This document shows positions 38,592 to 63,375 of a stretch of DNA of 64,000 nucleotides, piece after piece. Positions within the stretch are counted from its first letter, which is position 1; each line of letters opens with the position of its first letter. The notes under the pieces are model-generated. The model did not search any database. It saw only the letters and a program-made list of their open reading frames with translations, and had not been told where the DNA came from. The position numbers were made by a program, and so were the translations under genes. Source of the DNA: an archaeon (GTDB taxonomy: Archaea; Nanobdellota; Nanobdellia; Pacearchaeales; JAPDKA01); assembly GCA_029258825.1 (NCBI GenBank), contig JAPDKA010000003.1, positions 66,065-130,064 of the forward strand, read 5' to 3'.

Positions 38592-39245
38592 TTAACTTTT
38601 ATTTTTAACACCTATTGCTTTCGGAATAACCATTAAACCTTCTCGTTTGTCACCTATGCATTTTGCTTTTCCTTCTACATAAAGTTTAGCCAACCATGCA
38701 CATGTTATAGCATCAAGCTCGTCGTGTGTTGCCGTAACTTTAATATTATTTATGCCAAGTTTTGTTAATGCTTCTCTCAATTTTTTTATGCCGTGCTGTT
38801 TTCTAGGAATGTTCAGCAGGTCTTGCACTGCACCAGGATAAGTCTCGATAACATTAAAGCCCATTCTCGTTAGTGATTGCTTTAATTTTATTCCGCGCAG
38901 CGTTAATTTTCTCATTGGACCTAGTGTTATAGGAAAAAACCTAATACCAAGTTTTCTCAACATTAAATCACACTTTCTAAAATGCCCCTTACTTTTTTCT
39001 TTCTTGCTTAAACTAGTTCTGCCATAAGGTAAACTTAAAGGTGCATCTATTGCTATAACAAGCACTTTTGCTTTTCTTGCAATTCTTTTGCATGCATTAA
39101 CAATATCACGAAACAAAAATAAATTTGACGTTTCAACTTTGTTGTTGTGTAACCACAAAACACAAAACCCTGTTCTACGTTTTTGACTTCCGGCAAGATC
39201 TATGCCTATTACGCATCGCTTTTTAGCTTTGACTGTCTTGACCAT
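38592..39245 (-). CDS. DUF429 family protein (predicted RNase-H-fold nuclease)
   Basis: CVIGIDLAGSQKRRTG...VIAIDAPLSLPYG...THDELDAITCAWLA match the DUF429 motifs. The start is taken at MVKTVKAKK, so the gene is divergent from trpS. Confidence 0.5.
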   Translation of the reverse strand: MVKTVKAKKRCVIGIDLAGSQKRRTGFCVLWLHNNKVETSNLFLFRDIVNACKRIARKAKVLVIAIDAPLSLPYGRTSLSKKEKSKGHFRKCDLMLRKLGIRFFPITLGPMRKLTLRGIKLKQSLTRMGFNVIETYPGAVQDLLNIPRKQHGIKKLREALTKLGINNIKVTATHDELDAITCAWLAKLYVEGKAKCIGDKREGLMVIPKAIGVKNKS

Positions 39246-39303
39246 TTCTTCCATAACATCATAATAACACAAACTTTTAAAATGATTATGCATAAAACAT
39301 AAC

Positions 39304-40428
39304 ATGCAAGTTACGCCATGGAAGGTCGAGCTTGAAAGTTTTAGCGATAAAACATACAGCAAGCTTGCCAAACAATTCGGTGTAAAGTTAATTGATGAAG
39401 AATTGCTAGAGAGGATAAAAAAACATACAAAAGATTTGCACTTTATGTTAACACGTAGGGTTTTTTTCGCTCATCGTGATCTTGATTGGGTTATTGCAAA
39501 ATATGAGCAGAAAGAAAAATTTTTCCTGTATACAGGACGTGCCCCAAGCGGGCCAGTGCATTTAGGGCATTTAATGCCTTGGCTATTAACAAAGTGGTTG
39601 CAAGACAAGTTTGATGTTGAACTATGGTTCCAGTTTCCAGATGAAGAGAAATTTCTATTTAAAAAAGAATTAACACTTAAAGATACAGAAAAGTGGACAT
39701 ATGAAAATATGCTAGATGTAGTCGCGCTTGGTTTCAAAAAAGGAAAAACACACTTTTTAATTGATACAAAGCATGCCGGCATTATGTATAAGCATGCAGT
39801 AAGAGTATCCAAAAGAATAACATTTTCTACAGCTAAAGCTGTATTTGGTTTTACGCACGAGACAAATATTGGAGCAATATTTTACACTGCAATGCAAGCT
39901 GTTCCAGCATTTTTGCCTAGTGTATTAAAAGGCAAAAACATTCCTTGCTTGATTCCTCTTGGCTTAGACCAAGACCCACATTTTAGAGTTGCAAGAGATG
40001 TACTGCCTAAGTTAGGCTATTATAAGCCAGCAATAATGCATTGCAAGTTTTTACCTGCACTAACTGGACAGAGTAAAATGTCGGCATCAAATGCTGTTAC
40101 AGCAATTTATACAACAGACAGTCCTGAAGAAGTGGAAAGAAAAATAATGAAGCATGCGTTTTCTGGAGGGCAACCAACAGTTGAAGAGCATAGAAAAAAA
40201 GGTGGCAATCCTGACATTGATGTTAGTTTCCAATGGCTTTACATGATGTTCGAACCGGACAATAAAAAAATTAGTGAGATTTACCATGCTTATAAAACAG
40301 GAGCAATGCTAACATCTGAATTAAAGCACTATTTAATCGATAAGGTCAATGCTTTCTTAAAAAAACATCAAAAGGCAAGAGAAAAAGCGCGAAAGATAGT
40401 GCACAAATATATTTTGGAAGTTGACTAA
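39304..40428 (+). CDS. trpS: tryptophanyl-tRNA synthetase (archaeal/eukaryotic type)
   Basis: Class I HIGH region (TGRAPSGPVHLGHLMPW) and a KMSAS (KMSKS-like) motif, 374 aa. Confidence 0.85.
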   Translation: MQVTPWKVELESFSDKTYSKLAKQFGVKLIDEELLERIKKHTKDLHFMLTRRVFFAHRDLDWVIAKYEQKEKFFLYTGRAPSGPVHLGHLMPWLLTKWLQDKFDVELWFQFPDEEKFLFKKELTLKDTEKWTYENMLDVVALGFKKGKTHFLIDTKHAGIMYKHAVRVSKRITFSTAKAVFGFTHETNIGAIFYTAMQAVPAFLPSVLKGKNIPCLIPLGLDQDPHFRVARDVLPKLGYYKPAIMHCKFLPALTGQSKMSASNAVTAIYTTDSPEEVERKIMKHAFSGGQPTVEEHRKKGGNPDIDVSFQWLYMMFEPDNKKISEIYHAYKTGAMLTSELKHYLIDKVNAFLKKHQKAREKARKIVHKYILEVD

Positions 40429-40518: not shown

Positions 40519-41316
40519 ATGAAAAAAACAAGCACAGTGTTTGATGAAAACCTAATTAATAAGGTTCGTGCCCAGTTTGGCTTGAATGTTTATGAAACTA
40601 AAGTGTGGCTTTCATTACTTGCTAAAGGACAAGCAACAATAGGTGAAATAGCCGAAATAAGCGGCGTGCCTAGAAGCAGAATATATGATGTTCTTGAAAG
40701 TTTGGAAAAAGAAGGATTTGTTGTTGCTCATCTAGGAAAGCCTATGAAGTACATGGCAATCAAGCCAGAATTGGTTATAGAAAGGTTAAAAACAAAAGTA
40801 CTAAAAAAAGCTGAAGAAAAGGCAAAAATATTAAACAAGGTTAAAGAAACAGCAGAATATAAACAACTTGAATTGTTACATAAACAAGGAATAAAACCAG
40901 TACAACCTGAAGAGATTGCTGTTTCTATTAAAGGAAGGCTTAATATTTATACTCAACTTAAACAAATTATGGGCAATGCTAAAAAGGAAGTGGTGCTTGT
41001 AACAAACATAAATGCATTAAAAAGAAAGGCAAGGCACTTAAAGCAGGTGCTGCCTAAACTAAAAAAACAAAAAGTATCAATCGTACTCGCTGCAAGTGGT
41101 GAGCCAGAAGAAAAAACAAATATTTCTGAACAACTCGGTGTAAAGGTAAGAAAAATAAACCTCGATGCGAGATTTTGTGTTGTAGATGGTAAAGAAGCCT
41201 TAATAATAACAACACCGTTTTCAAAGCAAAACGAAGACATTGCAATACATATAAAAAGCGAATTCGTAGCTAGAGCATTACTTAATTTATTTAAAAATAC
41301 ACTAAAAAACGAATAA
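40519..41316 (+). CDS. TrmB family transcriptional regulator
   Basis: N-terminal wHTH (YETKVWLSLLAKGQATIGEIAEISGVPRSRIYDVLESLEKEGFVV) plus a C-terminal TrmB-like domain. Confidence 0.8.
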   Translation: MKKTSTVFDENLINKVRAQFGLNVYETKVWLSLLAKGQATIGEIAEISGVPRSRIYDVLESLEKEGFVVAHLGKPMKYMAIKPELVIERLKTKVLKKAEEKAKILNKVKETAEYKQLELLHKQGIKPVQPEEIAVSIKGRLNIYTQLKQIMGNAKKEVVLVTNINALKRKARHLKQVLPKLKKQKVSIVLAASGEPEEKTNISEQLGVKVRKINLDARFCVVDGKEALIITTPFSKQNEDIAIHIKSEFVARALLNLFKNTLKNE

Positions 41317-41376: not shown

Positions 41377-42129
41377 ATGCCTGCTAGTTACATGCTGTAC
41401 CAACACGCTAAGGAACTTCTCAATGTGTTAGCTAAGTTAAAAGCTTTGAATGAAAAAATAAAAAACAAAAGAATTTTGCAGAACGATTTTGAAAAACACC
41501 AGCAAGAGTATTATGAGAGAGTTATCAATGCAAAAATAAAAATAATAACGAATGCGATTGAAGAAGTAAAAAGAGTATCAAAAAGAAAAGCAGATGAATT
41601 AAGTGAGTATACAGCAAGACTGAAGCAAGAGTTAAACAAGCAAGAATTAGAAAAAGCGATAATAACTGCTGAACAATTGGTTGATGTTTGTTTTGCATTA
41701 AAAGAAAGCATGCCTAAACAACAACACTATAGATTCGCGTTAAATGTACAACTTCCTGAAGCGATAAAGCACGAGCTTCTCGCAGATCTCGAAGAGATAA
41801 AAAAATGTTTTGCTAATCAATGCTACAGAAGTTGTGTCATTATGGCAGGCCGTATGTTAGAAACAGCATTACATAGAAAGTATTATGAGATTACTGGTAA
41901 CGATTTATTGGAAAAAGCGCCAGGCATAGGATTAGGCAATCTTGTTGCAAGACTTGCTGAGCTGAAAGTAAAGCTTGATCCTGCAATAATGCAACAAATC
42001 CATTTAATAAACCAAGTCAGAATTTTTTCAGTACATAAAAAAAGGCAACCATTCAAACCAAGTAAAGAACAAACCTTAGCAATAATACTTTATACTCTTG
42101 ACATAATAAAAAAGTTATTTGAAAAATAA
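41377..42129 (+). CDS. DUF4145/HEPN-like domain protein (C-terminal), N-terminal coiled coil
   Basis: C-terminal CYRSCVIMAGRMLETALHRKYYEI ... LGNLVARLAELKVKLDPAIMQQIHLINQVRIFSVH matches the DUF4145 pattern, including an Rx4H HEPN-type motif. Confidence 0.5.
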   Translation: MPASYMLYQHAKELLNVLAKLKALNEKIKNKRILQNDFEKHQQEYYERVINAKIKIITNAIEEVKRVSKRKADELSEYTARLKQELNKQELEKAIITAEQLVDVCFALKESMPKQQHYRFALNVQLPEAIKHELLADLEEIKKCFANQCYRSCVIMAGRMLETALHRKYYEITGNDLLEKAPGIGLGNLVARLAELKVKLDPAIMQQIHLINQVRIFSVHKKRQPFKPSKEQTLAIILYTLDIIKKLFEK

Positions 42130-42235
42130 TTACTAAGATTAGGACTAATTGTAAATTTTGTGTAGTACTTCTAAAGTGATTAAACGAAAGATTTATAAAG
42201 ATCTCAAAAAGTATTAAAAGATTAAAACAAACAAA

Positions 42236-43720
42236 ATGGGAAAGAAGAAAACACGGTCAAAAAAAGAAAATAAAGAAAAGAAACTCGAACGATTGATAAA
42301 GAAATGTGTTGATTTAAAAAACGGAAATCGTGTAAGACAGATAGTAAGGATTGTAACGAAGGCTTATGAGAAAAATCCTGAAAAATTAAGAAAGTATTTT
42401 AACCACAGAAACGAATTAATAGCAGGAATTGCTACATCGGCATACTATTCTTTAACAGGAAATATTAAGCCAATCCGAAACATCGAGTATGGAGGGTTAG
42501 GAGCAATAATAGAAGAGAGTAAAGAAGGATTAAAGTTTGAAAGAAAGCAGTTGTGGTTTGCAAAATTGAGTGGAGAAGCATTAAAAAGATCTAAAAATTC
42601 TGGAAAAGCATTATGGTATTCAGAAAATTCGGGAAGGGCTTTAGAATTGTCAGTAAATTGTGGACAAGCTTTACGGTATTCTAAGAATTTTGGAGGGGCA
42701 TTAAACCATTCTAAAAATTCGGAACAAGCTTTATGGTACTCTATAAACTATGAAGGGGCGTTGGATCGTTCTGAGAATTGTGGTAGAGCACTAAAAGAAT
42801 CTAGAAATTCCGGGTATGCATTATGGTATTCTAAGAATTATGGTAAAGCACTGGAAAATTCTAAAAATTTGGAAGAGGCATTAAAGAACTCTAAAAATTT
42901 TGAGCAGGCATTACGGAATTCTGAGAATTCAGGAGAGGCGTTACAGAGTTCTATGAATTCTGGGCAAGCATTACAGTATTCTAGGAATTTGGGAGAAGCC
43001 TTAAAATATTCTAGAAATTGTGGAGAAGCCCTCTACGGTTCAGACAATTGGGACGAAGCGTTACAGAATTCTGAGAATTGGGGAAGGGCGTTACAGAGTT
43101 CCGATAATTGGGGAAAGGCGTTACAGAATTCAGAAAATTCTGGGCAAGCATTATGGTATTCTGGGAACCAACGAGAAGCGTTACAAGGTTCTAGAAATTC
43201 GGAATCTGCCCTAAGGTATTCTATAAATGTGGGGTCAGCATTACAAAATTCTAAGAATTCTGGGCAAGCATTATGGTATTCTAGGAATTTCAATCATGCA
43301 TTACAGTTCTCAGAGAACTCGGACGAATCTTTACATTATTCTGAAAATGTTGGGGTGGTATTAAGGTATTCAAAAAACTTCGGAAAGACACTACACCACT
43401 CTAGGAATAGTGAACGTGCACTTCAATATTCTAAAAATCTAGAAGAAGCATTACAGGATTCTGAGAATCGAGAAAAAGCATTGCAATATTCTGAGAATTC
43501 AGGAAAAACTTTACAGCATTCTAAAAACTATGGGGAGGCCTTACAACATTCCAAAAACTCAGAATATGCTCTATGGTATTCTAAAAATTGTGAAGATGCA
43601 TTAAAATATTCTAAGAATTCAGGACAAGCATTAAAACACTCTCAAAATTCAGAAAATGCCTTAAAAAAATCTAAAAATTCTGTTAGAGTGTTATGGTATA
43701 TAAAAAGAGGAATAAGGTAA
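42236..43720 (+). CDS. tandem decapeptide-repeat protein (about 38 copies of ALxYSxNSGx) with a roughly 100-aa non-repeat N-terminal domain
   Basis: One continuous ORF. The repeat consensus is A-L-[QWK]-[YN]-S-[KE]-N-S-G-[QE], encoded by near-identical 30-bp DNA repeats. Composition is atypical. Confidence 0.7.
   Translation: MGKKKTRSKKENKEKKLERLIKKCVDLKNGNRVRQIVRIVTKAYEKNPEKLRKYFNHRNELIAGIATSAYYSLTGNIKPIRNIEYGGLGAIIEESKEGLKFERKQLWFAKLSGEALKRSKNSGKALWYSENSGRALELSVNCGQALRYSKNFGGALNHSKNSEQALWYSINYEGALDRSENCGRALKESRNSGYALWYSKNYGKALENSKNLEEALKNSKNFEQALRNSENSGEALQSSMNSGQALQYSRNLGEALKYSRNCGEALYGSDNWDEALQNSENWGRALQSSDNWGKALQNSENSGQALWYSGNQREALQGSRNSESALRYSINVGSALQNSKNSGQALWYSRNFNHALQFSENSDESLHYSENVGVVLRYSKNFGKTLHHSRNSERALQYSKNLEEALQDSENREKALQYSENSGKTLQHSKNYGEALQHSKNSEYALWYSKNCEDALKYSKNSGQALKHSQNSENALKKSKNSVRVLWYIKRGIR
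42548..43690 (+). repeat. 30-bp tandem DNA repeat array (coding), about 38 units
   Basis: Period-30 repeats (consensus about GCATTACAGAATTCTGAGAATTCTGGGCAA) visible across the whole span. They lie inside the CDS 42236-43720. Confidence 0.85.
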
Positions 43721-43751
43721 GTGTTACTAAAGGTTAGATTTAATTAGGGTG

Positions 43752-45977
43752 TTATTCAACAATTGTCTCTGAATTTTCTTTTCTTAACCTTATAATGTTA
43801 TCCACAAAACCTTCTATTTTAGGTTCATGACTAACAATAATCAATTGCTCAGCATTAATTTCTTGAAGCACATCTCTGATTTTATCAAGCTGCTTGTCAG
43901 AAAATCCATCGGTAGGCTCGTCAAGAATAATTAACCCTTTTGTATTTATATTACCCAATAAACAATTGATTGTTTGATTTAAGGCTAGCCTATATGCTAG
44001 TGCCAAAGCTGTACGCTCGCCTCCAGAAAGATACTCATAGCTTGTTTCGTAGCCGTTCTGCTCTATTATCGGGGTAAAATCTATATCAACTTTAACAGAG
44101 ATTGTATCATCATCGATAAGCATGTTAAACCATCGTTGAAAAAATGCATTAAACTCTCTATTTATTGTTACCATAACCTGCTTCTCAATTTCGTCAACTG
44201 CTTTAATAAACTCTGTCGTTAAGAAATCATCAAACAGTTTAAGTTGTCTCATTTTTTCTAACTCTTCTTGTTTTTGTTTTACTTCAAGTTTTACTGCTAG
44301 AAGCTCATCAGAAAGAGATTTGACAATGCCATCAACATTTGCTTTCTGCTTAACAAGATTAAGTTCTCTTGCGTCAATTTCTAGTTTTAGTTGTTTTAGT
44401 TTATTTAGCTCTGATTCAACATTAGCAAGCTGTTGTCTAATTTTTGAATCGTCCTTAAGCTTTAACGACAGTTCATTAATCTCCTTATCCAATTTATTTA
44501 TAGCTTCTCTCTTTTCTTGTTGTTGTTTTATGGCATCGATAACAGCCCTAGCATGTAATGAGGCTTTATCTACTACATGGATTAAGTTGTCGATAGCTTC
44601 GATATAAGTTTTTATGCTGTTCTTGTCATTTTTCAAGCAATCAAGTTTTTGTTGCATAGAAAGTATAAGCTTATTAATAGCTTCAATTTTTTGTTTTTGC
44701 TCATTTTGAATAGATTCTTTATGTTGTTGCGGCACTATTTGTTTACACTTTGGACATTTATTAAGGTTTAAAATATCATTAAGTTCTTTTTCTAGATCTC
44801 GCTTTTTAGTATTTAACGAGTATAATTTTGCTGTTATGGTATTTATATTTTCTTCAAGTTTGTCTCTCACTTCTTTTGCTAATTTTAGATGGTCTCGTAA
44901 TTGATATTCTCTTAATTGATGTGCTATATTTAATTCATGTTCAGCACTAGCATTAAGTTGTTCGAGCAGCGTTAATAACTGCATAATCCTTGGAGTAATA
45001 GAAACAGCAGCATCAGTTAGCTTAATACAGTTTTCATCATTGCTGCATAGATTTAGATGAAATACATCTTTATCAATGCTAGAAGTAATTGAGCATATCT
45101 CTTCTATAGCTCTATTTTTTCTTTCCTCATACAACCTAAGCTCTTGCTGATAATCTTGCTTTAATTTTTGCTTTTCCCTTATTATTTCCGATAATGCTGC
45201 ATAGCTATTAACAAGCTCGTTAAGTTGCTTGTATTGTTTTTCTAATTGCTCTATATTAGCCTGTAATGCTTGTTTTTGTTGTTTAACGCGCTCTATTTCG
45301 CTACTAAGTTGTTCGGCTTGTTGTTTATATTGTGTCATTTGCTGGTCGATCTGCTTTAACCTTTGTAATTTTTCATCGATATCAGCAGTAAAACCTTGTT
45401 TTTCCTTAATAACGTTCTTAAGAAAATCGTGCAATATCTTAGCATTTTCTTTTATGCGATTATATTTTTCTATGTCGAACAGCTTTCTAAGCACTTCTAT
45501 ACGTGTTTCTGCTTTATCTTGGATAATTCTCTTCATCTCTTCTTGAGGTGTATAAACAGTAAACCTGTAAATGAGAGATTTCTTATTGAGATATTGCTTA
45601 GGATAATTCAACAATTCAAATACTCTAGCTTTAAGTTCAGTGGCACTTAAGCTAGCTTTACTGCCATCAATAACAATACTACCAGAATCTTGCGCAACGC
45701 TTGATTTAGTTCGTTTTAATGTTCGCATTATAATTACGTCTTTACCGTTAATATCAAGATGTAATTCGACACTGCCGCTCGATTGTCCATGTCTCAATAG
45801 ACTCGCGCCATCTATTTCACCTTTCTGTAAACCGAATAAAGCAAATTCTATTGCATAAAGAATACTACTTTTGCCAGTTCCTATGTCTCCAGCAAGCAAT
45901 ACCGAACCGGTCGGAAATTCGATTGAAGCGTTTGTATAGCTCCTAATATTGCGCAGTTTTACTTTTTTTATTCTCAT
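43752..45977 (-). CDS. rad50: Rad50/SbcC-family DNA double-strand-break repair ATPase
   Basis: Walker A GDIGTGKSS, a long coiled coil with a central CPKC zinc hook, the signature motif LSGGERTALALA and Walker B LIILDEPTDGFS. At 741 aa it is short for Rad50. Confidence 0.85.
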   Translation of the reverse strand: MRIKKVKLRNIRSYTNASIEFPTGSVLLAGDIGTGKSSILYAIEFALFGLQKGEIDGASLLRHGQSSGSVELHLDINGKDVIIMRTLKRTKSSVAQDSGSIVIDGSKASLSATELKARVFELLNYPKQYLNKKSLIYRFTVYTPQEEMKRIIQDKAETRIEVLRKLFDIEKYNRIKENAKILHDFLKNVIKEKQGFTADIDEKLQRLKQIDQQMTQYKQQAEQLSSEIERVKQQKQALQANIEQLEKQYKQLNELVNSYAALSEIIREKQKLKQDYQQELRLYEERKNRAIEEICSITSSIDKDVFHLNLCSNDENCIKLTDAAVSITPRIMQLLTLLEQLNASAEHELNIAHQLREYQLRDHLKLAKEVRDKLEENINTITAKLYSLNTKKRDLEKELNDILNLNKCPKCKQIVPQQHKESIQNEQKQKIEAINKLILSMQQKLDCLKNDKNSIKTYIEAIDNLIHVVDKASLHARAVIDAIKQQQEKREAINKLDKEINELSLKLKDDSKIRQQLANVESELNKLKQLKLEIDARELNLVKQKANVDGIVKSLSDELLAVKLEVKQKQEELEKMRQLKLFDDFLTTEFIKAVDEIEKQVMVTINREFNAFFQRWFNMLIDDDTISVKVDIDFTPIIEQNGYETSYEYLSGGERTALALAYRLALNQTINCLLGNINTKGLIILDEPTDGFSDKQLDKIRDVLQEINAEQLIIVSHEPKIEGFVDNIIRLRKENSETIVE

Positions 45978-47176
45978 TCTACGAGTTGCTTAAGCAATTT
46001 ATTATCAATTTTTAAACCATTCAAACAAGACTGCAATAAACGTTGATTAAACACAGCAGTAATTTCGCCTTCTTGTTTCTCAATGTTAAGCAAATTAAAA
46101 AGTGTAAAAACATCAAACTGTTTAAGCTTAGCCAATAGTTTATTTTCTATCTCTTCTACATTGCTAGCCTGTATTTCTGTTGCTGTTTCAAATTCCTTAG
46201 TCGTAAGTTTCGAGAAATTACGTAATAAACAAAAAACACGCTTCTCGTTTGCGATTTTTTGCACAGCCTTAAGATCTATTTCAGAAGGTTTGCCAGACTT
46301 TAACACACCACTTGCCTTAAGCAAAACAATTTTATCTTGCACATCTCTACTTTCAAATTGCTTCACAATTTGTTGAGTGATTTCGTATGGTGTTAAATTG
46401 TTTGCATCAATATTAATGCATTCCACATCTTTTACAACAATAGGCAACAACTCAATTTTAGTATTGCTGTTTAACTCTACAATACAACAAGAACCATGTT
46501 TTATTTTTTCTAATTCATCAAAAGAGTTCGGAAATAAACAGCCAGGATAACAACAATTGTTAAATACTTTAGCTATATGAATATGGCCTAAAGCATAATA
46601 ATCTGCTTCAGGCAATGAAGAGAGCTTAACTTTGTTTACAAAGTTTGTTAGACTTTCATCAACGCATTCAGCAACATTTGTGTGCAGAACAAGGATAAGC
46701 TTTTTGTCAGGCCATAACTCTTTAATGGCATTAACTTTGTTGTTAAATTCATCTATGTTTTCAAGCTCCAAATTTCGTTTTTTTCCTTGTAGCCCTACAA
46801 TCACATAAGGCTTATCATTAAACATTGATTCAAGCTTATCATCATCAAGAGTGTCAAATGCTACATTGTAGCATAAACCTGCTGAAGACAGAACATCTAT
46901 GATACTAACACCACTTAAACTTGAATCATGACTACCAGCAATAACATAACAAGGAATCTTTGCTTCATTCAATTGTTTTAATTTTTCTGCAACATGCTTT
47001 ACAACCTTCATGTTGGGAACAGCAACGTCAAATAGGTCGCCTGCTATAATGACAAAATCAACATGCTTACTTAGAGCTATGTCTATGGCTTTATCAAATG
47101 CTTGCAAATTAAGTTGCATTAATCTTTCGTCACGCCAACCGCCAAGATGGCAGTCTGCAATATGTAAAAATTTCAT
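45974..47176 (-). CDS. mre11: Mre11/SbcD-family nuclease
   Basis: Phosphoesterase motifs MKFLHIADCHLGG, ...GDLFD..., ...GNHD-like..., GHIH. It is co-operonic with rad50, overlapping by 4 nt. Confidence 0.85.
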   Translation of the reverse strand: MKFLHIADCHLGGWRDERLMQLNLQAFDKAIDIALSKHVDFVIIAGDLFDVAVPNMKVVKHVAEKLKQLNEAKIPCYVIAGSHDSSLSGVSIIDVLSSAGLCYNVAFDTLDDDKLESMFNDKPYVIVGLQGKKRNLELENIDEFNNKVNAIKELWPDKKLILVLHTNVAECVDESLTNFVNKVKLSSLPEADYYALGHIHIAKVFNNCCYPGCLFPNSFDELEKIKHGSCCIVELNSNTKIELLPIVVKDVECINIDANNLTPYEITQQIVKQFESRDVQDKIVLLKASGVLKSGKPSEIDLKAVQKIANEKRVFCLLRNFSKLTTKEFETATEIQASNVEEIENKLLAKLKQFDVFTLFNLLNIEKQEGEITAVFNQRLLQSCLNGLKIDNKLLKQLVE

Positions 47177-56800: not shown

Positions 56801-58195
56801 ATGATTAGGTTTGTTAATAGAAATAGAGAGTTGAACATTTTAAATAGAGATTGGAATAATTTGAATAATGGATTTATAGTTATTTATGGTAGAAGAAGGA
56901 TCGGAAAGACAAAGCTTATAGAGGAATTTGTAAAAGACAAAAAAGGAATAAGTTATACTGCCGAAGATACAAGCAAGAAAATTCAGATAAGAGAATTCAA
57001 AGATGCTATAGCAAGTTTTTTGGATGATGATTTTTTGAAAAACCAAGAGATAGTAAGTTGGTCTTCTTTGTTTGAGTATTTACAAAAAGTGCTAGATAGA
57101 AATAAGCGTTTTTATATATGGATAGACGAATTTTCTTATTTGTTAAAAAATGATAAATCATTACCAAGCATATTACAAAAATTCATTGATAAATTCTTGA
57201 GGAACTCTAAAATTTTCTTTATTGTAAGTGGCTCATTATTTGGTTTAATGAAAGAAAAGGTTTTATCAAATTCTTCCCCCCTTTACGGAAGGAGAACAAG
57301 AGACATATTACTTAGAGAACTAAATTTCGAACATGCAATCAAATTCGTTAATTTTAATTTTGAAGACAAATTAAAAACATTCCTTACAATTGGAGGAATT
57401 CCAGAATATCTTTTAGTAGCTTCAAAATTCAAAACTTATGAAGAATTTATAAAACAAGAATTTTTTACTCATGAAGGATATTTCTACAGAGAGCCTTATT
57501 TCCTACTATCCCAAGAATTTAAAGAGATAAGGATCTATTTTTCTATACTTAATGCGATTGCATATGGTAATACAAAACCAAGCGAGATAGCAAATTTTGT
57601 TGGGATAAAAACAAGGGAAATATACCCTTATCTTGAATTACTTAATGCTTACGGATTCGTTACAAGAGAGAAACATCTATTCAAAGAAAAGCTAGGAATC
57701 TATTTAATCAAAGATTGTTTTTTTGATTTCTGGTTTAATTTTGTACATAAGAATAGAGAGCTTATAGAAAGAGGAGCTTATGAATTAAATAAAAAAAAGA
57801 TAAACACATATCTTGGAAAAAGATTCGAGATTTTCATTAAAGATAACTTCCATTACTTTTTCAAGGATTATACAAAAATCGGCAGATGGTGGCACAAAGA
57901 CAGAGAAATTGATATTGTAGCTATCAACGAAAAAAACAAGCAAATTCTTGCTTGTGAATGCAAATGGCAAAGCAGGGTTAATGCTGAAAAGATAGCTAAA
58001 GAACTAAACGAAAAGCTTGGCTATGTTGATTGGCAAAAAGATAAAAGAAAAGAAAGTTTTGCTATTTTTGCAAAAAGCTTTAGCAAACGCATTAAGGAAT
58101 GGCAAGGCAAGCCTGTTTATTGCTTTGATTTGAAGGATTTAGAGAAAGCAATGAAACACAAAACAAAACACAAAAAATTTTTAAAGAGTAAATGA
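56801..58195 (+). CDS. archaeal AAA-type ATPase fused to a DUF234 domain
   Basis: Walker A IYGRRRIGKTKL, Walker B WIDEFSYL, then a C-terminal DUF234-like region. This is a common archaeal architecture. Confidence 0.6.
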   Translation: MIRFVNRNRELNILNRDWNNLNNGFIVIYGRRRIGKTKLIEEFVKDKKGISYTAEDTSKKIQIREFKDAIASFLDDDFLKNQEIVSWSSLFEYLQKVLDRNKRFYIWIDEFSYLLKNDKSLPSILQKFIDKFLRNSKIFFIVSGSLFGLMKEKVLSNSSPLYGRRTRDILLRELNFEHAIKFVNFNFEDKLKTFLTIGGIPEYLLVASKFKTYEEFIKQEFFTHEGYFYREPYFLLSQEFKEIRIYFSILNAIAYGNTKPSEIANFVGIKTREIYPYLELLNAYGFVTREKHLFKEKLGIYLIKDCFFDFWFNFVHKNRELIERGAYELNKKKINTYLGKRFEIFIKDNFHYFFKDYTKIGRWWHKDREIDIVAINEKNKQILACECKWQSRVNAEKIAKELNEKLGYVDWQKDKRKESFAIFAKSFSKRIKEWQGKPVYCFDLKDLEKAMKHKTKHKKFLKSK

Positions 58196-61100
58196 GTTGG
58201 GTGAGTATGAAGAGGGGTGTAAAATATTTAATTATGTTATTTTTTTTCATGTTATTATTATTTATGAATATCGATCACAACGTTAAAGCGGCAACACAAA
58301 AAAAAGAGCTATTAATATTATTTACGTTGAAATTAAATAGTGATGGGAGTACACACCCACATACTACAAACTTGAAAGGATGGGTAATAGACTTTTCCGA
58401 TCAACAACAACCAACAAAGAGATTAAAGAAAGAAGGGGAAAGCAATAATATTTTTGTTGAGAATGTACCAATAGAGTTTGAAACAGGAGTATGGGATCAC
58501 AATTTTGGATATGGTGTGGGAGCTACTTTGGGTGATTACGATTGTGATAAAAAACCTGATTTGATAATAGCATATGGTACAGGTTGGAACAATAACAAAC
58601 CTCAATGGATAAAATTATTAATATTTGAAAATATAAAACTAGTAGAACGTGGCGGTGTGGTAACATACTATGAACTTCAATATGATAGAGAAAAAGAAAT
58701 TGATTTAACAAGAGATTATGATGGAATAAAATATTTACTTGGTGATCATGTTGGAGGAATAGGAATCACATTTGTAGGATGTAGAGGCGACATTAGTAAA
58801 TTTAGAATAGTAGTATTCGATCCTGAAAAAGACTGTAAAGCTAGAGCAGTCGATGTAGAGTTATGTAACTGTAAATACTATGGAAGTTCAAGTATAAGTT
58901 GGTGGAGTGGTTGGCCAAGCGGAAGTATAGCAAATGAAAGAGGAAGTGGAGTCGGAGTAATTAATAAAACTTATTTTATGATATATACTACTTACTTTAA
59001 GGAAACTGAAAATCTTCTTGATATATTCGAATGTGATGAAAGTTCTGAGAAGTGTACAAAAAAAGAGGGAAAAGATCTTAATTGGAATGTAGCTTCTGGC
59101 ATAGGGGCCACATCAAAATCAAAAGATACGGTAATTATAGCAATTACTTCCTATAAACCAAATGATGATGTTGCAAAAATAAAATTGATGAAGCTAGACA
59201 CTACAAAGTTACACGAATTTGGTGTTTTCAATTCACCAAGATTAAGTGAAGGATTATCGACATTCGGCATTGGTTTAGCACGGGCCGTTATAAACCCTTT
59301 TAGTGGGAAACTTATAGAAGACTGCTCAAATGGCTTAGATGATGATTTCGATGGAAAGATTGATGATAATGATAAAGATTGTGATGAAAGTCAGCATTGT
59401 GGTGATGGAATAGACAATGATGATGATGGTAAGAAAGATTGCGCCGATCCAGACTGCTGGGGAAAAACAGGTCCAAATGGAGTGAGATGTTGTGGTTCAG
59501 ATGATGATTGTGGTAATAAGTGTAAAAATTGTAAGTATTATAAGGGTGAATGTAATAATAACATATGTACATGGGAGGAACATATAGGTACTGACGAGGA
59601 TAATGATGAACACGATGTAGAGTGTGGATATCAATGTGAATGTAATGACAGTGATGATACTATTCATAAAGACGCAACTGAAATCTGCACTGACGAAATA
59701 GACAATGATTGTGATGACCTAATCGACTGCGATGATCCTGATTGTACAAACAACCCTGCGTGTGCTCCTCAAACAGAAACAGACTGTTCAAACGAAATTG
59801 ATGATGATGGAGATGGTTTTATTGATTGTGAGGATCCTGACTGTGCTGGACGTGAAGGTCCAAATGGGAAAATTTGTTGTCAAGAAAGCTGGGACTGTCC
59901 TGGATGGCCAACACAATTTTGTAGTAAACCTACCCACGCATGCACATATTGTAGTAAATCTGGTGAATGTAGCATAGAAAAATGCGATTATAAAATATTC
60001 GGATGTTGTATTTCTCAAGGAAAAGTATGCAAAGATTCTACATGCCAAACAGCATGTCAAGTAGTAAAAAATCGCAAAATTAATTTAAAAGAGTTGGAAG
60101 ATATTCCACAGTGCTTAGTACTTCGAGGAAACGTAACTCTAGATTGTCAAAACCAGATATTAGACGGAAGTCATACTAATTTTCCTGCTGCGATAGTTAT
60201 TTCTAACGAAAATGGAGAGGACGGTCCGATAATAATTAAGAACTGTAAACTACAAAATTGGGTATACGGAATTTTAGCATATTATTCTGCAAACATTATA
60301 TTAGAGAATGTAGAAATAAATAACTCTAAACGACAGTGCGATACAGGAGGTATAGGAGCAGCATTCTACGAAAGTAAAGATATAACAATAATCAATAGCA
60401 AGATTGTTAATAACAGTTGGGATGGTATTGGAATCTACGCTAGACGATATAATGTAAGTAACATAACAATACGTGGTAGCACCATTTACTACAACGGCTG
60501 GCAATCAACAAACGGCGGAGCTGGTATTTCGTTCTATACCCCAAGCAACAACAAGTTAAGTGATATAACGGTAAAAAACAGCCATATTTACAACAATTCA
60601 TTTTCAGGTATATACTTGAAAAATGTTGAGAATGTCAAAATAATAGGCAACAACATACATGATAATAACATAGGTATTAACGTTAATGGAAATAGTAGTG
60701 GTATAACGATAATAGACAACATAATACACAGAAACGTAAATAATACAAACAATTTTCCAGAGAATATTAAAAAAGATGAATATGGTTTAAATGAAGCTGG
60801 ACAAGGAATAAGGCTTAAAACAATTGTTGGAGAAAAAATACGAAATGTAACAATAAAAAATAACGAGATTTACGATAATGATGCAGAAGGTATTGATAGT
60901 TACTGGAGGGATAGTGGAAACTTATTTGATATTCAAATACTACAAAACACATTAAAAGACAATAGACATGGCATTTCTCTGAAGAATGTTGACAGATTCG
61001 TAATAAGAAATAAATTAACTCAAACTAATGTTTTTAAAAATGGAGAGGAACCATTATGGGAGTGGGAGTGCGTCCCAATTGAAAACCATGACTCTGCGAT

Positions 61101-63375
61101 CACAATAGCTAAAAGCAAAAATGGTATTATTAGCGTATGCTCTATTAATAACTGCTTCGGTGAATACGCAAGAGGTATAGGAATAGGCGACTCAGAAAAT
61201 ATTATTATCAGGTATACAAAGGTAACAAACTGTCAAGGCAATGGCACAGTTTTCTGGAGAAGCAGAAATATCACATTTATCAACGATGTTTTCTGCAACA
61301 ATACGGTTGATGTTAATAATTTTACTGGGAATAGCGAGATAACAATAGAGAATGTGACGTGTGATAAGAGTATAAATTTTAAGTGCACAAATAATTGTAC
61401 GCCCGGCAGGGAAGAAGGAAGATATATACTGGCTACTTGTTGGGAAAAGGGAAATTTCAAAAAATGCAATGGAAGCTATGAGGTAAAGGTTGATACTACT
61501 GTGAACGCTAGAGTAGAGGTTAACACATCATTGATAAATGGAAGGAAAGCAAAAGTAAACATAACAATCTATAAACGCACGTGCTGGTCTAGTGGTGTTA
61601 CTTTTGCTGTGTGGAGTGGAATGGCAACTGGAGGGATACCACCAGATGATGGAGAACAAATTTGTGAAGATAAATTAATCGACACAGCGGTTGTAGATGT
61701 AACAGATGGTATAGCAAGACTATCGTTTACGCCTGAAGAGCTGGCCACTCGAGAGGAAGACTCATGGTACTGGTTTAAAGCAAGATTGATAATAGATAAC
61801 AACGTTATAGAAGAAAAAAACAGCTACAGGCTTTATGTTTATAGAGAACTACCAAACCGCCCACCAGTAGCTATAATAACATCGCCAACGCCGGAATGTG
61901 ATCCAAACGTGCATGAATGTATATGCTATGAGAATGGAGTAGCAAAAGAATGTGGTCCTGATAATCCATGTGGCGACAATATAGGCCCATGCTATTACAA
62001 AAATAATACAGCAATCTGGTTTAATCAAACAAGTTATGATCCTGACGGTTACGATGATATTGTTGAATGGTACTGGAACATGAGTGATGGAAAGACATAT
62101 AATGTAGATTGGAGCAATAATAAAAATGTGAATCTAACACATAAATATCAAGCTAATACTGTTCCAGCATTTTATATGCCTTTTGTGTATTTAAAAGATA
62201 AAGCAAAAAATGAATCAATAGCATCTTCTAATATATGGGTAATTACTAAAGACATTACAAATTGGCCACCGATATTAGAAATATTAAGTCCAAAACAAGG
62301 AGAAACTATAAATAAAAATAAAATAGAATTGAAAATACGATTTGAGGATCCTGATAATGATATTTCTGAATATTCATTTTGGTATCTTTTATCCTCATAT
62401 GATGGAAGATATACATACTCTACAATATGTAGTCCAGCACAATCATTAGATTGCCCTAACATAACACTCACACTTCCTATAAATGGAAAATATGGCCTAC
62501 TAGTTTTTGCTTTTAATGGTGAAAGTAATAATAACTGGGCAATATCTTATATAGAATTCGATGTAGAAGGTATTGATGAATGTGTATGCTCAACAAGCAG
62601 CGGGCTAATTCCATGCGGAATGTGTTTCGATAATGGAAAATACTGCAATGATAAAGGGGAGGTGGTTGATAATTGTACAGCGTGTGGATGTAACGATGGT
62701 TATTACTGTGCAGAATCAGGCAAGTGTGTAGAAGGCCACACTACTGAAGAGTGTGCGCAAAAAACAGATATAGAAAGTTGTCATGAATTGGAAGGATGTT
62801 ATTGGGACGATTGTAAAGCATGTGAAGATGTGACAACTCCATCCTGTAGTGTATATACAAATGACACAACATGTTGGCTTGATCCTTGTATATTTAATGA
62901 TGAGGAGGCACAGGCGATAACTTCAAATTTAAATAATGGAGAACAGTTTATAGGCGGAAACTGTGCTTGGGACGAAACGCAGAATAAATGTTATTATAAC
63001 TATACAGTTATTGGGCCTAATGGTGGGTATATTTGTAAGAAAACAACAACTGTAGTACAAGAATGTAGTAATGTTAACAGAAAAAGAATTGTAGAAATAA
63101 AGTACTATAAATGTGATTTGAATGGGGAAAATTGTGTAGAAGATAGTTCAAATGAGTGTCCAGGTCAACCTAGAGGGATAGTCGAATATAACTGCCCACA
63201 AACACCTGGCGAGCAATTGCCAGCAATTAGCACAACAGCTATAGGTCTTGCTATAGCATTAGTCATACTTTACTACATGATTAAAGCGAGCAAGATTGGC
63301 AGTAAGAAGCCAATTAAGAAAAGAGGGAAAAAGAAAAAGAGAAAATCAAAAAAGAGAAAAGTCAAGAAAAAATAG
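58192..63375 (+). CDS. giant (1727 aa) cell-surface protein: signal peptide, MopE-like Cys/Asp putative metal-binding repeats, a right-handed beta-helix (PbH1-like) region, a PKD-like domain, and a C-terminal TM anchor with a poly-Lys tail
   Basis: N-terminal hydrophobic leader. At least 5 C-x-D-x-DDD-DG-x-ID-x-D-DC-x-DPDC repeats (aa about 375-560). NNxIxxN/GIxL beta-helix repeats (aa about 640-900). A DPDGYDDIVEWYWNMSDGK PKD-like motif. The C-terminus is PGEQLPAISTTAIGLAIALVILYYMIKASK + KKRGKKKKRKSKKRKVKKK. Confidence 0.75.
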   Translation: MSWVSMKRGVKYLIMLFFFMLLLFMNIDHNVKAATQKKELLILFTLKLNSDGSTHPHTTNLKGWVIDFSDQQQPTKRLKKEGESNNIFVENVPIEFETGVWDHNFGYGVGATLGDYDCDKKPDLIIAYGTGWNNNKPQWIKLLIFENIKLVERGGVVTYYELQYDREKEIDLTRDYDGIKYLLGDHVGGIGITFVGCRGDISKFRIVVFDPEKDCKARAVDVELCNCKYYGSSSISWWSGWPSGSIANERGSGVGVINKTYFMIYTTYFKETENLLDIFECDESSEKCTKKEGKDLNWNVASGIGATSKSKDTVIIAITSYKPNDDVAKIKLMKLDTTKLHEFGVFNSPRLSEGLSTFGIGLARAVINPFSGKLIEDCSNGLDDDFDGKIDDNDKDCDESQHCGDGIDNDDDGKKDCADPDCWGKTGPNGVRCCGSDDDCGNKCKNCKYYKGECNNNICTWEEHIGTDEDNDEHDVECGYQCECNDSDDTIHKDATEICTDEIDNDCDDLIDCDDPDCTNNPACAPQTETDCSNEIDDDGDGFIDCEDPDCAGREGPNGKICCQESWDCPGWPTQFCSKPTHACTYCSKSGECSIEKCDYKIFGCCISQGKVCKDSTCQTACQVVKNRKINLKELEDIPQCLVLRGNVTLDCQNQILDGSHTNFPAAIVISNENGEDGPIIIKNCKLQNWVYGILAYYSANIILENVEINNSKRQCDTGGIGAAFYESKDITIINSKIVNNSWDGIGIYARRYNVSNITIRGSTIYYNGWQSTNGGAGISFYTPSNNKLSDITVKNSHIYNNSFSGIYLKNVENVKIIGNNIHDNNIGINVNGNSSGITIIDNIIHRNVNNTNNFPENIKKDEYGLNEAGQGIRLKTIVGEKIRNVTIKNNEIYDNDAEGIDSYWRDSGNLFDIQILQNTLKDNRHGISLKNVDRFVIRNKLTQTNVFKNGEEPLWEWECVPIENHDSAITIAKSKNGIISVCSINNCFGEYARGIGIGDSENIIIRYTKVTNCQGNGTVFWRSRNITFINDVFCNNTVDVNNFTGNSEITIENVTCDKSINFKCTNNCTPGREEGRYILATCWEKGNFKKCNGSYEVKVDTTVNARVEVNTSLINGRKAKVNITIYKRTCWSSGVTFAVWSGMATGGIPPDDGEQICEDKLIDTAVVDVTDGIARLSFTPEELATREEDSWYWFKARLIIDNNVIEEKNSYRLYVYRELPNRPPVAIITSPTPECDPNVHECICYENGVAKECGPDNPCGDNIGPCYYKNNTAIWFNQTSYDPDGYDDIVEWYWNMSDGKTYNVDWSNNKNVNLTHKYQANTVPAFYMPFVYLKDKAKNESIASSNIWVITKDITNWPPILEILSPKQGETINKNKIELKIRFEDPDNDISEYSFWYLLSSYDGRYTYSTICSPAQSLDCPNITLTLPINGKYGLLVFAFNGESNNNWAISYIEFDVEGIDECVCSTSSGLIPCGMCFDNGKYCNDKGEVVDNCTACGCNDGYYCAESGKCVEGHTTEECAQKTDIESCHELEGCYWDDCKACEDVTTPSCSVYTNDTTCWLDPCIFNDEEAQAITSNLNNGEQFIGGNCAWDETQNKCYYNYTVIGPNGGYICKKTTTVVQECSNVNRKRIVEIKYYKCDLNGENCVEDSSNECPGQPRGIVEYNCPQTPGEQLPAISTTAIGLAIALVILYYMIKASKIGSKKPIKKRGKKKKRKSKKRKVKKK

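Follow-up and report, generated by a model that had tools for sequence, protein, structure and literature searches.

A predicted archaeal beta-solenoid of 38 tandem decapeptides and its possible role as a partner-binding module

Introduction

What does a protein built largely of one ten-residue unit fold into, how stable is the DNA that encodes it, and what could it do in an archaeal cell? These questions are raised by an open reading frame (ORF) at 42236..43720 (plus strand) of a 64,000-nucleotide stretch of contig JAPDKA010000003.1, from a member of the Pacearchaeales; this whole stretch (positions 66,065 to 130,064 of the contig) is hereafter called the window. A preliminary description, made from the sequence alone, had noted the repeats and had suggested a possible solenoid and a gene that might vary in size or phase. 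We report here that the protein is predicted to consist of a helical head and a beta-solenoid rod of 38 decapeptides, and we consider, at a probability of about 0.55, that this head and rod form a partner-binding or sensor module acting through a separate partner, the best candidate being a TrmB-family regulator. Of this explanation, the part on structure is likely, and the part on function is put forward as a weak one.

The decapeptide array

When the translated ORF (494 aa in the ORF listing) was sliced from aa 115 (nt 42578), after an N-terminal part of 114 aa, we observed 37 clean 10-mers and one degenerate unit, in perfect register and with no indels. The unit consensus was A-L-x-x-S-x-N-x-(G/E)-x, with Leu at position 2, Ser at position 5 and Asn at position 7 each present in 37/37 units, Ala at position 1 in 33/37, and Gly or Glu at position 9 in 32/37. 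This invariance, together with the perfect register, shows that the periodicity of the array is not due to chance. The ORF and the approximately 38 in-register decapeptides of the preliminary description were thus borne out by the ORF listing and the unit table. The parts of the gene are as follows.

42236..43720, plus strand: complete coding sequence of the decapeptide-repeat protein, a predicted beta-solenoid of 494 aa (ORF listing; homologues in metagenome-assembled genomes (MAGs) of Nanoarchaeota and Woesearchaeota and in metagenomes; 7 synonymous versus 2 non-synonymous single-nucleotide polymorphisms (SNPs))
42236..42325, plus strand: lineage-specific N-terminal tail rich in Lys, aa 1-30, with a net charge of +9 (charge count; weakly conserved in alignment A1)
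42326..42520, plus strand: family-specific helical head domain, aa ~31-95, with GNRxR, AYExNP, AGIATSAY and EYGGLGAII (invariant or near-invariant columns in alignments A1 and A3)
42521..42577, plus strand: predicted first solenoid coil, aa 96-114 (KEGLKFER KQLWF AKLSG E), with canonical hydrophobic centres, setting the array register (DSSP strands 100-101 and 110-114, model 1)
42578..43687, plus strand: 37 decapeptide units, each of two non-equivalent pentapeptides, xALxx and SxNSG (unit table, position counts)
43688..43717, plus strand: degenerate last unit VLWYIKRGIR, the C-terminal end of the array (unit table)

There was no separate C-terminal domain past the end of the array, the protein had neither a signal peptide nor a membrane segment, and no paralogue of the gene was found within the window. 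Its composition had been called atypical. This holds for the amino acids (Ser 12.8% versus 5.1%, Asn 10.9% versus 5.1% in the comparison) and fails for the nucleotides, as the gene has a GC content of 0.351 against 0.332 for the window. Nor is its basic character distinctive, since its isoelectric point (pI) of 9.6 is close to the median of 9.57 for the proteins encoded in the window; the array itself has a net charge of +11 and a pI of 9.2. The related suggestion that a basic N-terminus binds nucleic acid was not supported as a family feature, as the local proteome as a whole is basic and the equivalent domain is neutral or acidic in several homologues. The net charge of homologue arrays ranges from -4 to +11.

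Predicted structure of the protein

AlphaFold2, run with a 10-sequence alignment, gave a predicted local distance difference test score (pLDDT) of 90-98 for aa 20-220. In the model, five helices lead into a beta-hairpin-like cap and then into a solenoid with one short strand per 10 residues, and the head helices at aa 30-43, 48-54, 60-74 and 78-82 had pLDDT values of 94-97. The confidence of the full-length model collapsed past aa 240, where the alignment ends. When aa 235-494 were modelled with an alignment of their own, the same solenoid was obtained, with a pLDDT of 90-96 over aa 255-444, so that a single unbroken rod probably spans the entire array. Confidence in the predicted fold is high throughout the parts with alignment depth (pLDDT >90), and the solenoid guessed in the preliminary description agrees with the beta-solenoid that is predicted here.

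The DSSP strands fell at unit positions 6-7(-8), centred on F101, L111, N121, N131 and onward. In at least nine successive units their length alternated between two and three residues, which points to a structural period of 20 residues with two units per coil. From known solenoid geometry, a coil of 10 residues could probably not house the Leu side chains inside. The register, read from the first coil, is LKFER / KQLWF / AKLSG / EALKR / SKNSG / KALWY. We also examined 268 units from 30 members of the family, and observed that charged residues made up 0-2% at unit positions 1, 2, 5 and 7 and 20-48% at the other six, and that position 7, when not Asn, was Ile, Leu or Phe. This pattern is consistent with ladders of Leu, Ala, Ser and Asn forming the core and with an exposed surface that varies.

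We propose a cytoplasmic rod in which the conserved head of about 85 residues would nucleate and cap a long beta-solenoid of 38 decapeptides. In the SxNSG half of each unit the central Asn and the preceding Ser would point inward, and in the xALxx half the Ala-Leu pair would do so. Two decapeptides (20 residues) would make up one coil, giving about 19 coils and a rod of about 9 nm. The interior would hold ladders of Leu, Asn and Ser, and positions 3, 4, 6, 8 and 10, which vary and are often charged or aromatic, would lie outside.

Comparison with known repeat folds

The repeat protein gave nothing above the cut-offs in scans against Pfam (including its repeat families) and PHROGs, and nothing reached the cut-off in NCBIfam, where PipB2 scored 20.6 bits against a cutoff of 354. 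A sequence-profile search of the PDB with the protein returned nothing significant, and the head domain was likewise without a Pfam or PDB match. These results uphold the earlier remark that the repeat lies outside the recognised sequence classes. Library matches to SpoU, TPR_12, PipB2 and connector were dismissed as weak repeat noise. In the PADLOC scan, the window protein and its homologue P0001 were unmatched, and in a second homologue, P0004, just the kinase domain matched kinase-containing models. No account of a decapeptide repeat of this kind was found in literature searches.

Foldseek searches of the PDB with the full-length model matched the low-confidence helical tail alone. With the clean solenoid model the best matches were the synthetic Beta1 solenoid, which is derived from pentapeptide-repeat proteins, and the pentapeptide proteins HetL, MfpA, Qnr and AlbG; these matches were weak, with E values of 0.013-0.1, template modelling (TM) scores of 0.2-0.35 and root-mean-square deviations of 8-11 Å. 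A Foldseek search of the BFVD viral library gave nothing significant.

Pentapeptide-repeat proteins form a right-handed quadrilateral beta-helix with 4 x 5 residues per coil. The decapeptide protein resembles them in being a predicted beta-solenoid of tandem short repeats with a 20-residue structural period, in the canonical appearance of its first coil (LKFER KQLWF AKLSG), in having two residues of every five that are never charged, and in its best Foldseek matches. We tested the relationship against the Pfam families PF00805, PF13599 and PF13576 and the Qnr and MfpA models of NCBIfam. The window protein had no Pfam pentapeptide match at E<=1; distant relatives gave matches below threshold to Pentapeptide_4 (14 bits, cutoff 38) and Pentapeptide_3 (15.7 bits, cutoff 27), and matches below threshold to the PipB2 and MfpA models also occurred within the family. 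A comparison of alignment A1 with alignment A4 by hhalign gave a probability of 1.2%, with 24 columns aligned, in the first coil only. Alignment A4 was made up of QnrB1, QnrD1, QnrA1, QnrS1 and a Nostoc pentapeptide protein, and the QnrB1 sequence used in it matched annotated plasmid genes at 100% identity.

The five-residue period of the motif A(D/N)LXX, with a small residue at i-2 and Leu or Phe at i, was not observed either. The true period here is 10, with two non-equivalent halves. The S-x-N-S-G half fits the motif at i-2, i+1 and i+2, with Ser at i-2, but it is centred on an invariant Asn at i rather than on Leu or Phe. In the xALxx half, Leu occupies i and is preceded by a conserved Ala, and i-2 is variable and often charged; this half would bury the adjacent Ala-Leu pair (i-1, i) instead of i-2 and i. 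The surface is basic and not acidic, and a family-specific helical head is present. We classify the decapeptide protein as a new double-pentapeptide variant of the beta-solenoid; its predicted fold comes closest to the pentapeptide-repeat proteins, but it falls outside their family.

A similar layout, with one short strand and turn per repeat, two repeats per coil and turns rich in Gly and Asn, is seen in the RTX beta-roll, whose nonapeptides (GGxGxDxUx) pair up in coils of 18 residues. However, the decapeptide protein has no GGxGxD calcium-binding motif, no conserved Asp and no GG pair; its unit is of 10 and not 9 residues, it is cytoplasmic and has no secretion signal, and it was unmatched by Pfam HemolysinCabind.

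Distribution and architectures of the family

Among 5.8 billion proteins, only nine relatives were recovered by a word-indexed search; a HMMER profile search of 1.84 billion cluster representatives recovered 220 at E<=0.001 and 45 at <=1e-30. The conserved N-terminal domain was present in about 90 of the 152 proteins that were re-scanned with the family profile. Three of the matches, P0051 (TLEPHINSSQ), P0075 (GTGxTDSGNR) and P0097 (SLTDSGNTDA), contain unrelated 10-residue repeats and should be regarded as false positives in any count of the family; they are probably eukaryotic or secreted proteins.

The genome loci of the family were in Nanoarchaeota and Woesearchaeota MAGs, and the metagenomic contexts that were read contained archaeal neighbours (S19e, L31e, exosome, proteasome, aIF2-gamma, S6e, aIF5B). 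Every family context that was read was archaeal or phage-like. No source, cluster look-ups included, gave a name to any member. The family is rare and unnamed, and has been seen so far in contexts of the DPANN type of archaea.

The headed members share the head of about 85 residues with its four motifs, and this is followed by a conserved first coil, L-x-F-x-x-x-Q-L-x-F-A-x-L-S-G, and then by about 5 to 38 decapeptides. Most members stand alone. The family median is 235 aa, and no stand-alone array seen was longer than that of the window protein.

In other members the array is joined to further domains. A C-terminal Ser/Thr kinase (Pkinase) is fused in P0004 and P0013, which are tandem paralogues of 649 and 643 aa (contig L004, 8321-12218), each with head, decapeptide array and kinase. 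An N-terminal GHKL ATPase (HATPase_c_3) with HExxH is fused in P0006, and also in P0001 and P0010; a PDB sequence search with this region of P0010 found nothing. The start of P0001 is overlapped by 4 nt by a 48-aa ribbon-helix-helix gene (RHH_1, weak; L002 9858-10004 / L003 284-430), a layout that resembles a toxin-antitoxin or autoregulated pair. A sigma70-region-4 helix-turn-helix (HTH) and a conserved tail are fused in P0017, P0036 (Sigma70_r4 8.8e-11), P0048 and P0060. Members with this bacterial-type HTH and the tail SWF..FTSR..WA.RNG were found at L029 8001-9323, at L030 689-1930 and on L012, in neighbourhoods that are clearly archaeal (S6e, aIF2-gamma, aIF5B; RadA, EF1-beta).

Head-less arrays were seen in P0033 and P0045. 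The gene for P0045 (574 aa, with an STNSGxALxx array) immediately follows one for a collagen-like phage tail fibre (PHROG tail fibre 4e-94; L013 121-5395), which suggests that the decapeptide rod is also used in viral fibres. An integrase-core (rve) gene directly upstream of one member (L022 173-688) was the sole hint of a mobile element among the loci.

Divergence of the DNA repeats and stability of the array

The decapeptides had been described as encoded by near-identical 30-bp DNA repeats, and this was not what we observed. The mean pairwise identity of the 30-bp units was 60% and the maximum 87%, and neighbouring units were no closer in sequence than distant ones. Tandem Repeats Finder, a check of the kind proposed earlier, gave only 60-76% matches. 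The longest exact repeated word was of 27 nt, a single occurrence 120 nt apart. Among blocks of four units, compared in order to detect recent duplications, no two were more than 74% identical, and we therefore make no claim as to the mode of array expansion. Even the codons of the invariant residues had drifted, with Ala encoded by GCA, GCT, GCG and GCC, Leu by six codons, and a third-position identity of 0.35 at the Ala codons. This drift indicates that the array is old and has been maintained by selection on the protein, and that a long, perfectly periodic protein repeat need not imply a hypermutable DNA repeat.

We further compared the array between assemblies. A Logan contig (L001, SRR22064148) was 100% identical to window positions 42103-43783, with 38 units. 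A contig from the Joint Genome Institute (JGI; L014, Ga0180302_10046292) represents a second strain, with 11 SNPs relative to the window in 2070 nt. Nine of these lay within the gene (7 synonymous, 2 non-synonymous), there were no indels, and the same 38 units were present, so that the unit count was identical in all three assemblies. Assembly collapse, an earlier concern, is not expected, since the exact internal repeats never exceed 27 nt and are thus shorter than assembler k-mer sizes. The repeat gene is real, it is under purifying selection, and its array length is stable.

Two readings of the array at the DNA level have to be weighed against these observations. The preliminary description had proposed a contingency gene, in which slipped-strand expansion and contraction of the 30-bp units would yield a protein variable in size or phase. 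As in the bacterial simple-sequence contingency loci, there is a long in-frame tandem array of units inside the coding sequence; its length does vary from about 5 to 38 units among distant homologues, and the 27-nt exact repeat could allow a rare in-frame event of four units. However, near-identical tandem units capable of mispairing were not found, the units being only about 60% alike, and copy number did not differ between the two strains or, at the assembly level, among the three assemblies. The synonymous divergence between units marks the array as old, and because the unit length is divisible by three, the reading frame cannot be shifted by slippage. The proposal is largely refuted, and we regard it as highly improbable. 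Even less credence, close to none, can be given to a non-functional array, that is, a spurious ORF lying over a non-coding DNA repeat or an artefact of assembly. It is true that the databases give the protein no name, that a homologue is a hypothetical protein at JGI, and that the repeats also open ORFs in other reading frames. Nevertheless, the protein is invariant where the DNA has diverged, about 90 representatives share a conserved head that is not repetitive, and the longest exact repeat is below the k-mers of the assemblers; the conserved head, the 7:2 ratio of SNPs and the agreement of independent assemblies rule this reading out.

Possible function of the head and rod

The function was approached through the fusions described above and through the neighbours of the gene, which are given here with a promoter-like element.

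42186..42201, plus strand: promoter-like element, a purine-rich stretch like the B recognition element (BRE) and a TATA-like box, cgaaagATTTATAAAg, ~35-50 nt 5' of the ATG (read from the sequence)
41377..42129, plus strand: DUF4145 gene, between the TrmB and repeat genes (Pfam 3.7e-05, 24.1 bits, cutoff 23.1)
40519..41316, plus strand: TrmB-family transcription regulator, a recurrent neighbour of the family (Pfam TrmB 1.6e-22)
43752-45977, minus strand: rad50, 741 aa, with zinc-hook region (Pfam)
45974-47176, minus strand: mre11, 400 aa (Pfam)

The placing of the repeat gene between a DUF4145 gene on one side and rad50/mre11 on the other, as first described, was supported by Pfam. The element at 42186-42201, judged by the usual layout of archaeal promoters, is a putative promoter and would allow the repeat gene to be transcribed on its own. 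Of 14 distinct loci, four had a TrmB-like gene next to the family gene, and these account for 4/5 of the TrmB-like matches in the 231 kb examined. The orientations of the TrmB neighbours differ between the loci, and the TrmB proteins are 25-32% identical to one another.

We suggest that the head and rod together may be a partner-binding or sensor module, because they are fused to signalling and DNA-binding outputs and because TrmB stands beside the gene in those four loci. The output would be part of the same chain in the relatives (kinase, GHKL ATPase or sigma70-r4 HTH), and the stand-alone form would act through a separately encoded partner, most plausibly the adjacent TrmB regulator, with contact made by the conserved head and the variable surface of the rod. 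Known pentapeptide-repeat proteins act by binding other proteins, and one of them, HetL, has been reported to control HetR by direct binding in cyanobacteria. A wider conjecture, which we hold only tentatively, is that this undescribed double-pentapeptide family with its Asn/Ser ladders might be the input module of small archaeal signalling circuits, with outputs fused or encoded next door (TrmB), and that the rod would govern the activity of a transcription factor by binding it directly.

Several points weigh against the proposed explanation. TrmB is absent from the neighbourhood at 10/14 loci, and where it is adjacent, an inherited order of genes may be part of the reason. No single pathway emerges from the fused domains, which are heterogeneous, and any partner or ligand of the rod is putative. 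On the structural side, the AlphaFold2 models rest on shallow alignments of 10-11 sequences, and repeats may inflate the confidence; the coil size and the buried residues were derived from DSSP strings and conservation; and with the weak Foldseek similarity, the cross-section of the modelled solenoid may differ from that of the quadrilateral pentapeptide helix.

Other functions for such a rod were also considered. It could be a purely structural rod or fibre, serving as a spacer, a cytoskeletal filament or a part of an appendage with no specific signalling, in which the exposed C-terminal end permits end-to-end assembly. The predicted rigid rod indeed lacks a C-terminal cap, the array length varies freely between lineages, and the head-less array of P0045 follows a phage tail-fibre gene. 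However, a signal peptide and a membrane segment are both lacking, the stand-alone members are mostly short, and the highly conserved head with its kinase, ATPase and HTH fusions favours a regulatory module, so that we consider a purely structural role unlikely. A DNA mimic of the MfpA/Qnr type, in which the rod would imitate B-form DNA and modulate a topoisomerase or the neighbouring Rad50-Mre11, appears less likely still. MfpA, Qnr and AlbG are among the best structural neighbours, the gene lies tail-to-tail with rad50-mre11, and RadA or RadC-like genes adjoin two homologues. Yet DNA mimics are strongly acidic, and the array, at +11, is not, which makes such a role improbable; there is no profile-level relation to Qnr, and among the loci examined adjacency to Rad50/Mre11 was limited to this window. 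An ice-binding or surface role was set aside, as the signal peptide is absent and the conserved Ser and Asn behave as buried residues and not as a flat exposed array.

In the tiny genomes of the DPANN archaea a considerable proportion of the genes is functionally uncharacterised, and this family, with a confident predicted fold and clear fusion partners in relatives, gives a concrete handle on one of them. A unit of strictly 10 residues whose invariant Asn is buried would also extend the repertoire of pentapeptide and beta-solenoid repeats, both for repeat classification and for solenoid design. As the function is one that we infer, the practical impact is modest.

Other features of the region

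The rad50 and mre11 genes overlap by 4 nt (45974-45977) and are convergent with the repeat gene, with 31 nt between the stop codons. The DUF4145 neighbour was seen in this window only and was absent at all other loci. Farther neighbours encode a tryptophanyl-tRNA synthetase (TrpRS), DUF429, signal-peptide peptidase, aEF2, aIF2-beta, DUF424 and a hybrid-cluster protein, and the region is an unremarkable housekeeping part of an AT-rich archaeal genome.

In three loci a family gene has a gene for a class Ib aminoacyl-tRNA synthetase nearby (window 39304-40428, L004 4133-5239 and L005 8805-9833). The window and L004 copies (TrpRS) are orthologous, with 36% identity over the full length, and the L005 copy, a tyrosyl-tRNA synthetase (TyrRS), is the other paralogue (~27%). 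This proximity is probably due to synteny or chance. As listed, from a TTG codon, the DUF429 ORF (38592-39371, minus strand) shares 68 nt with the beginning of the TrpRS-like gene (39304-40428, plus strand), and the true DUF429 start probably lies farther downstream.

The window also encodes a second, unrelated large solenoid, a 1727-aa ORF at 58192-63375 (plus strand) with Beta_helix (7.5e-24) and NosD-like regions, which is probably a surface protein.

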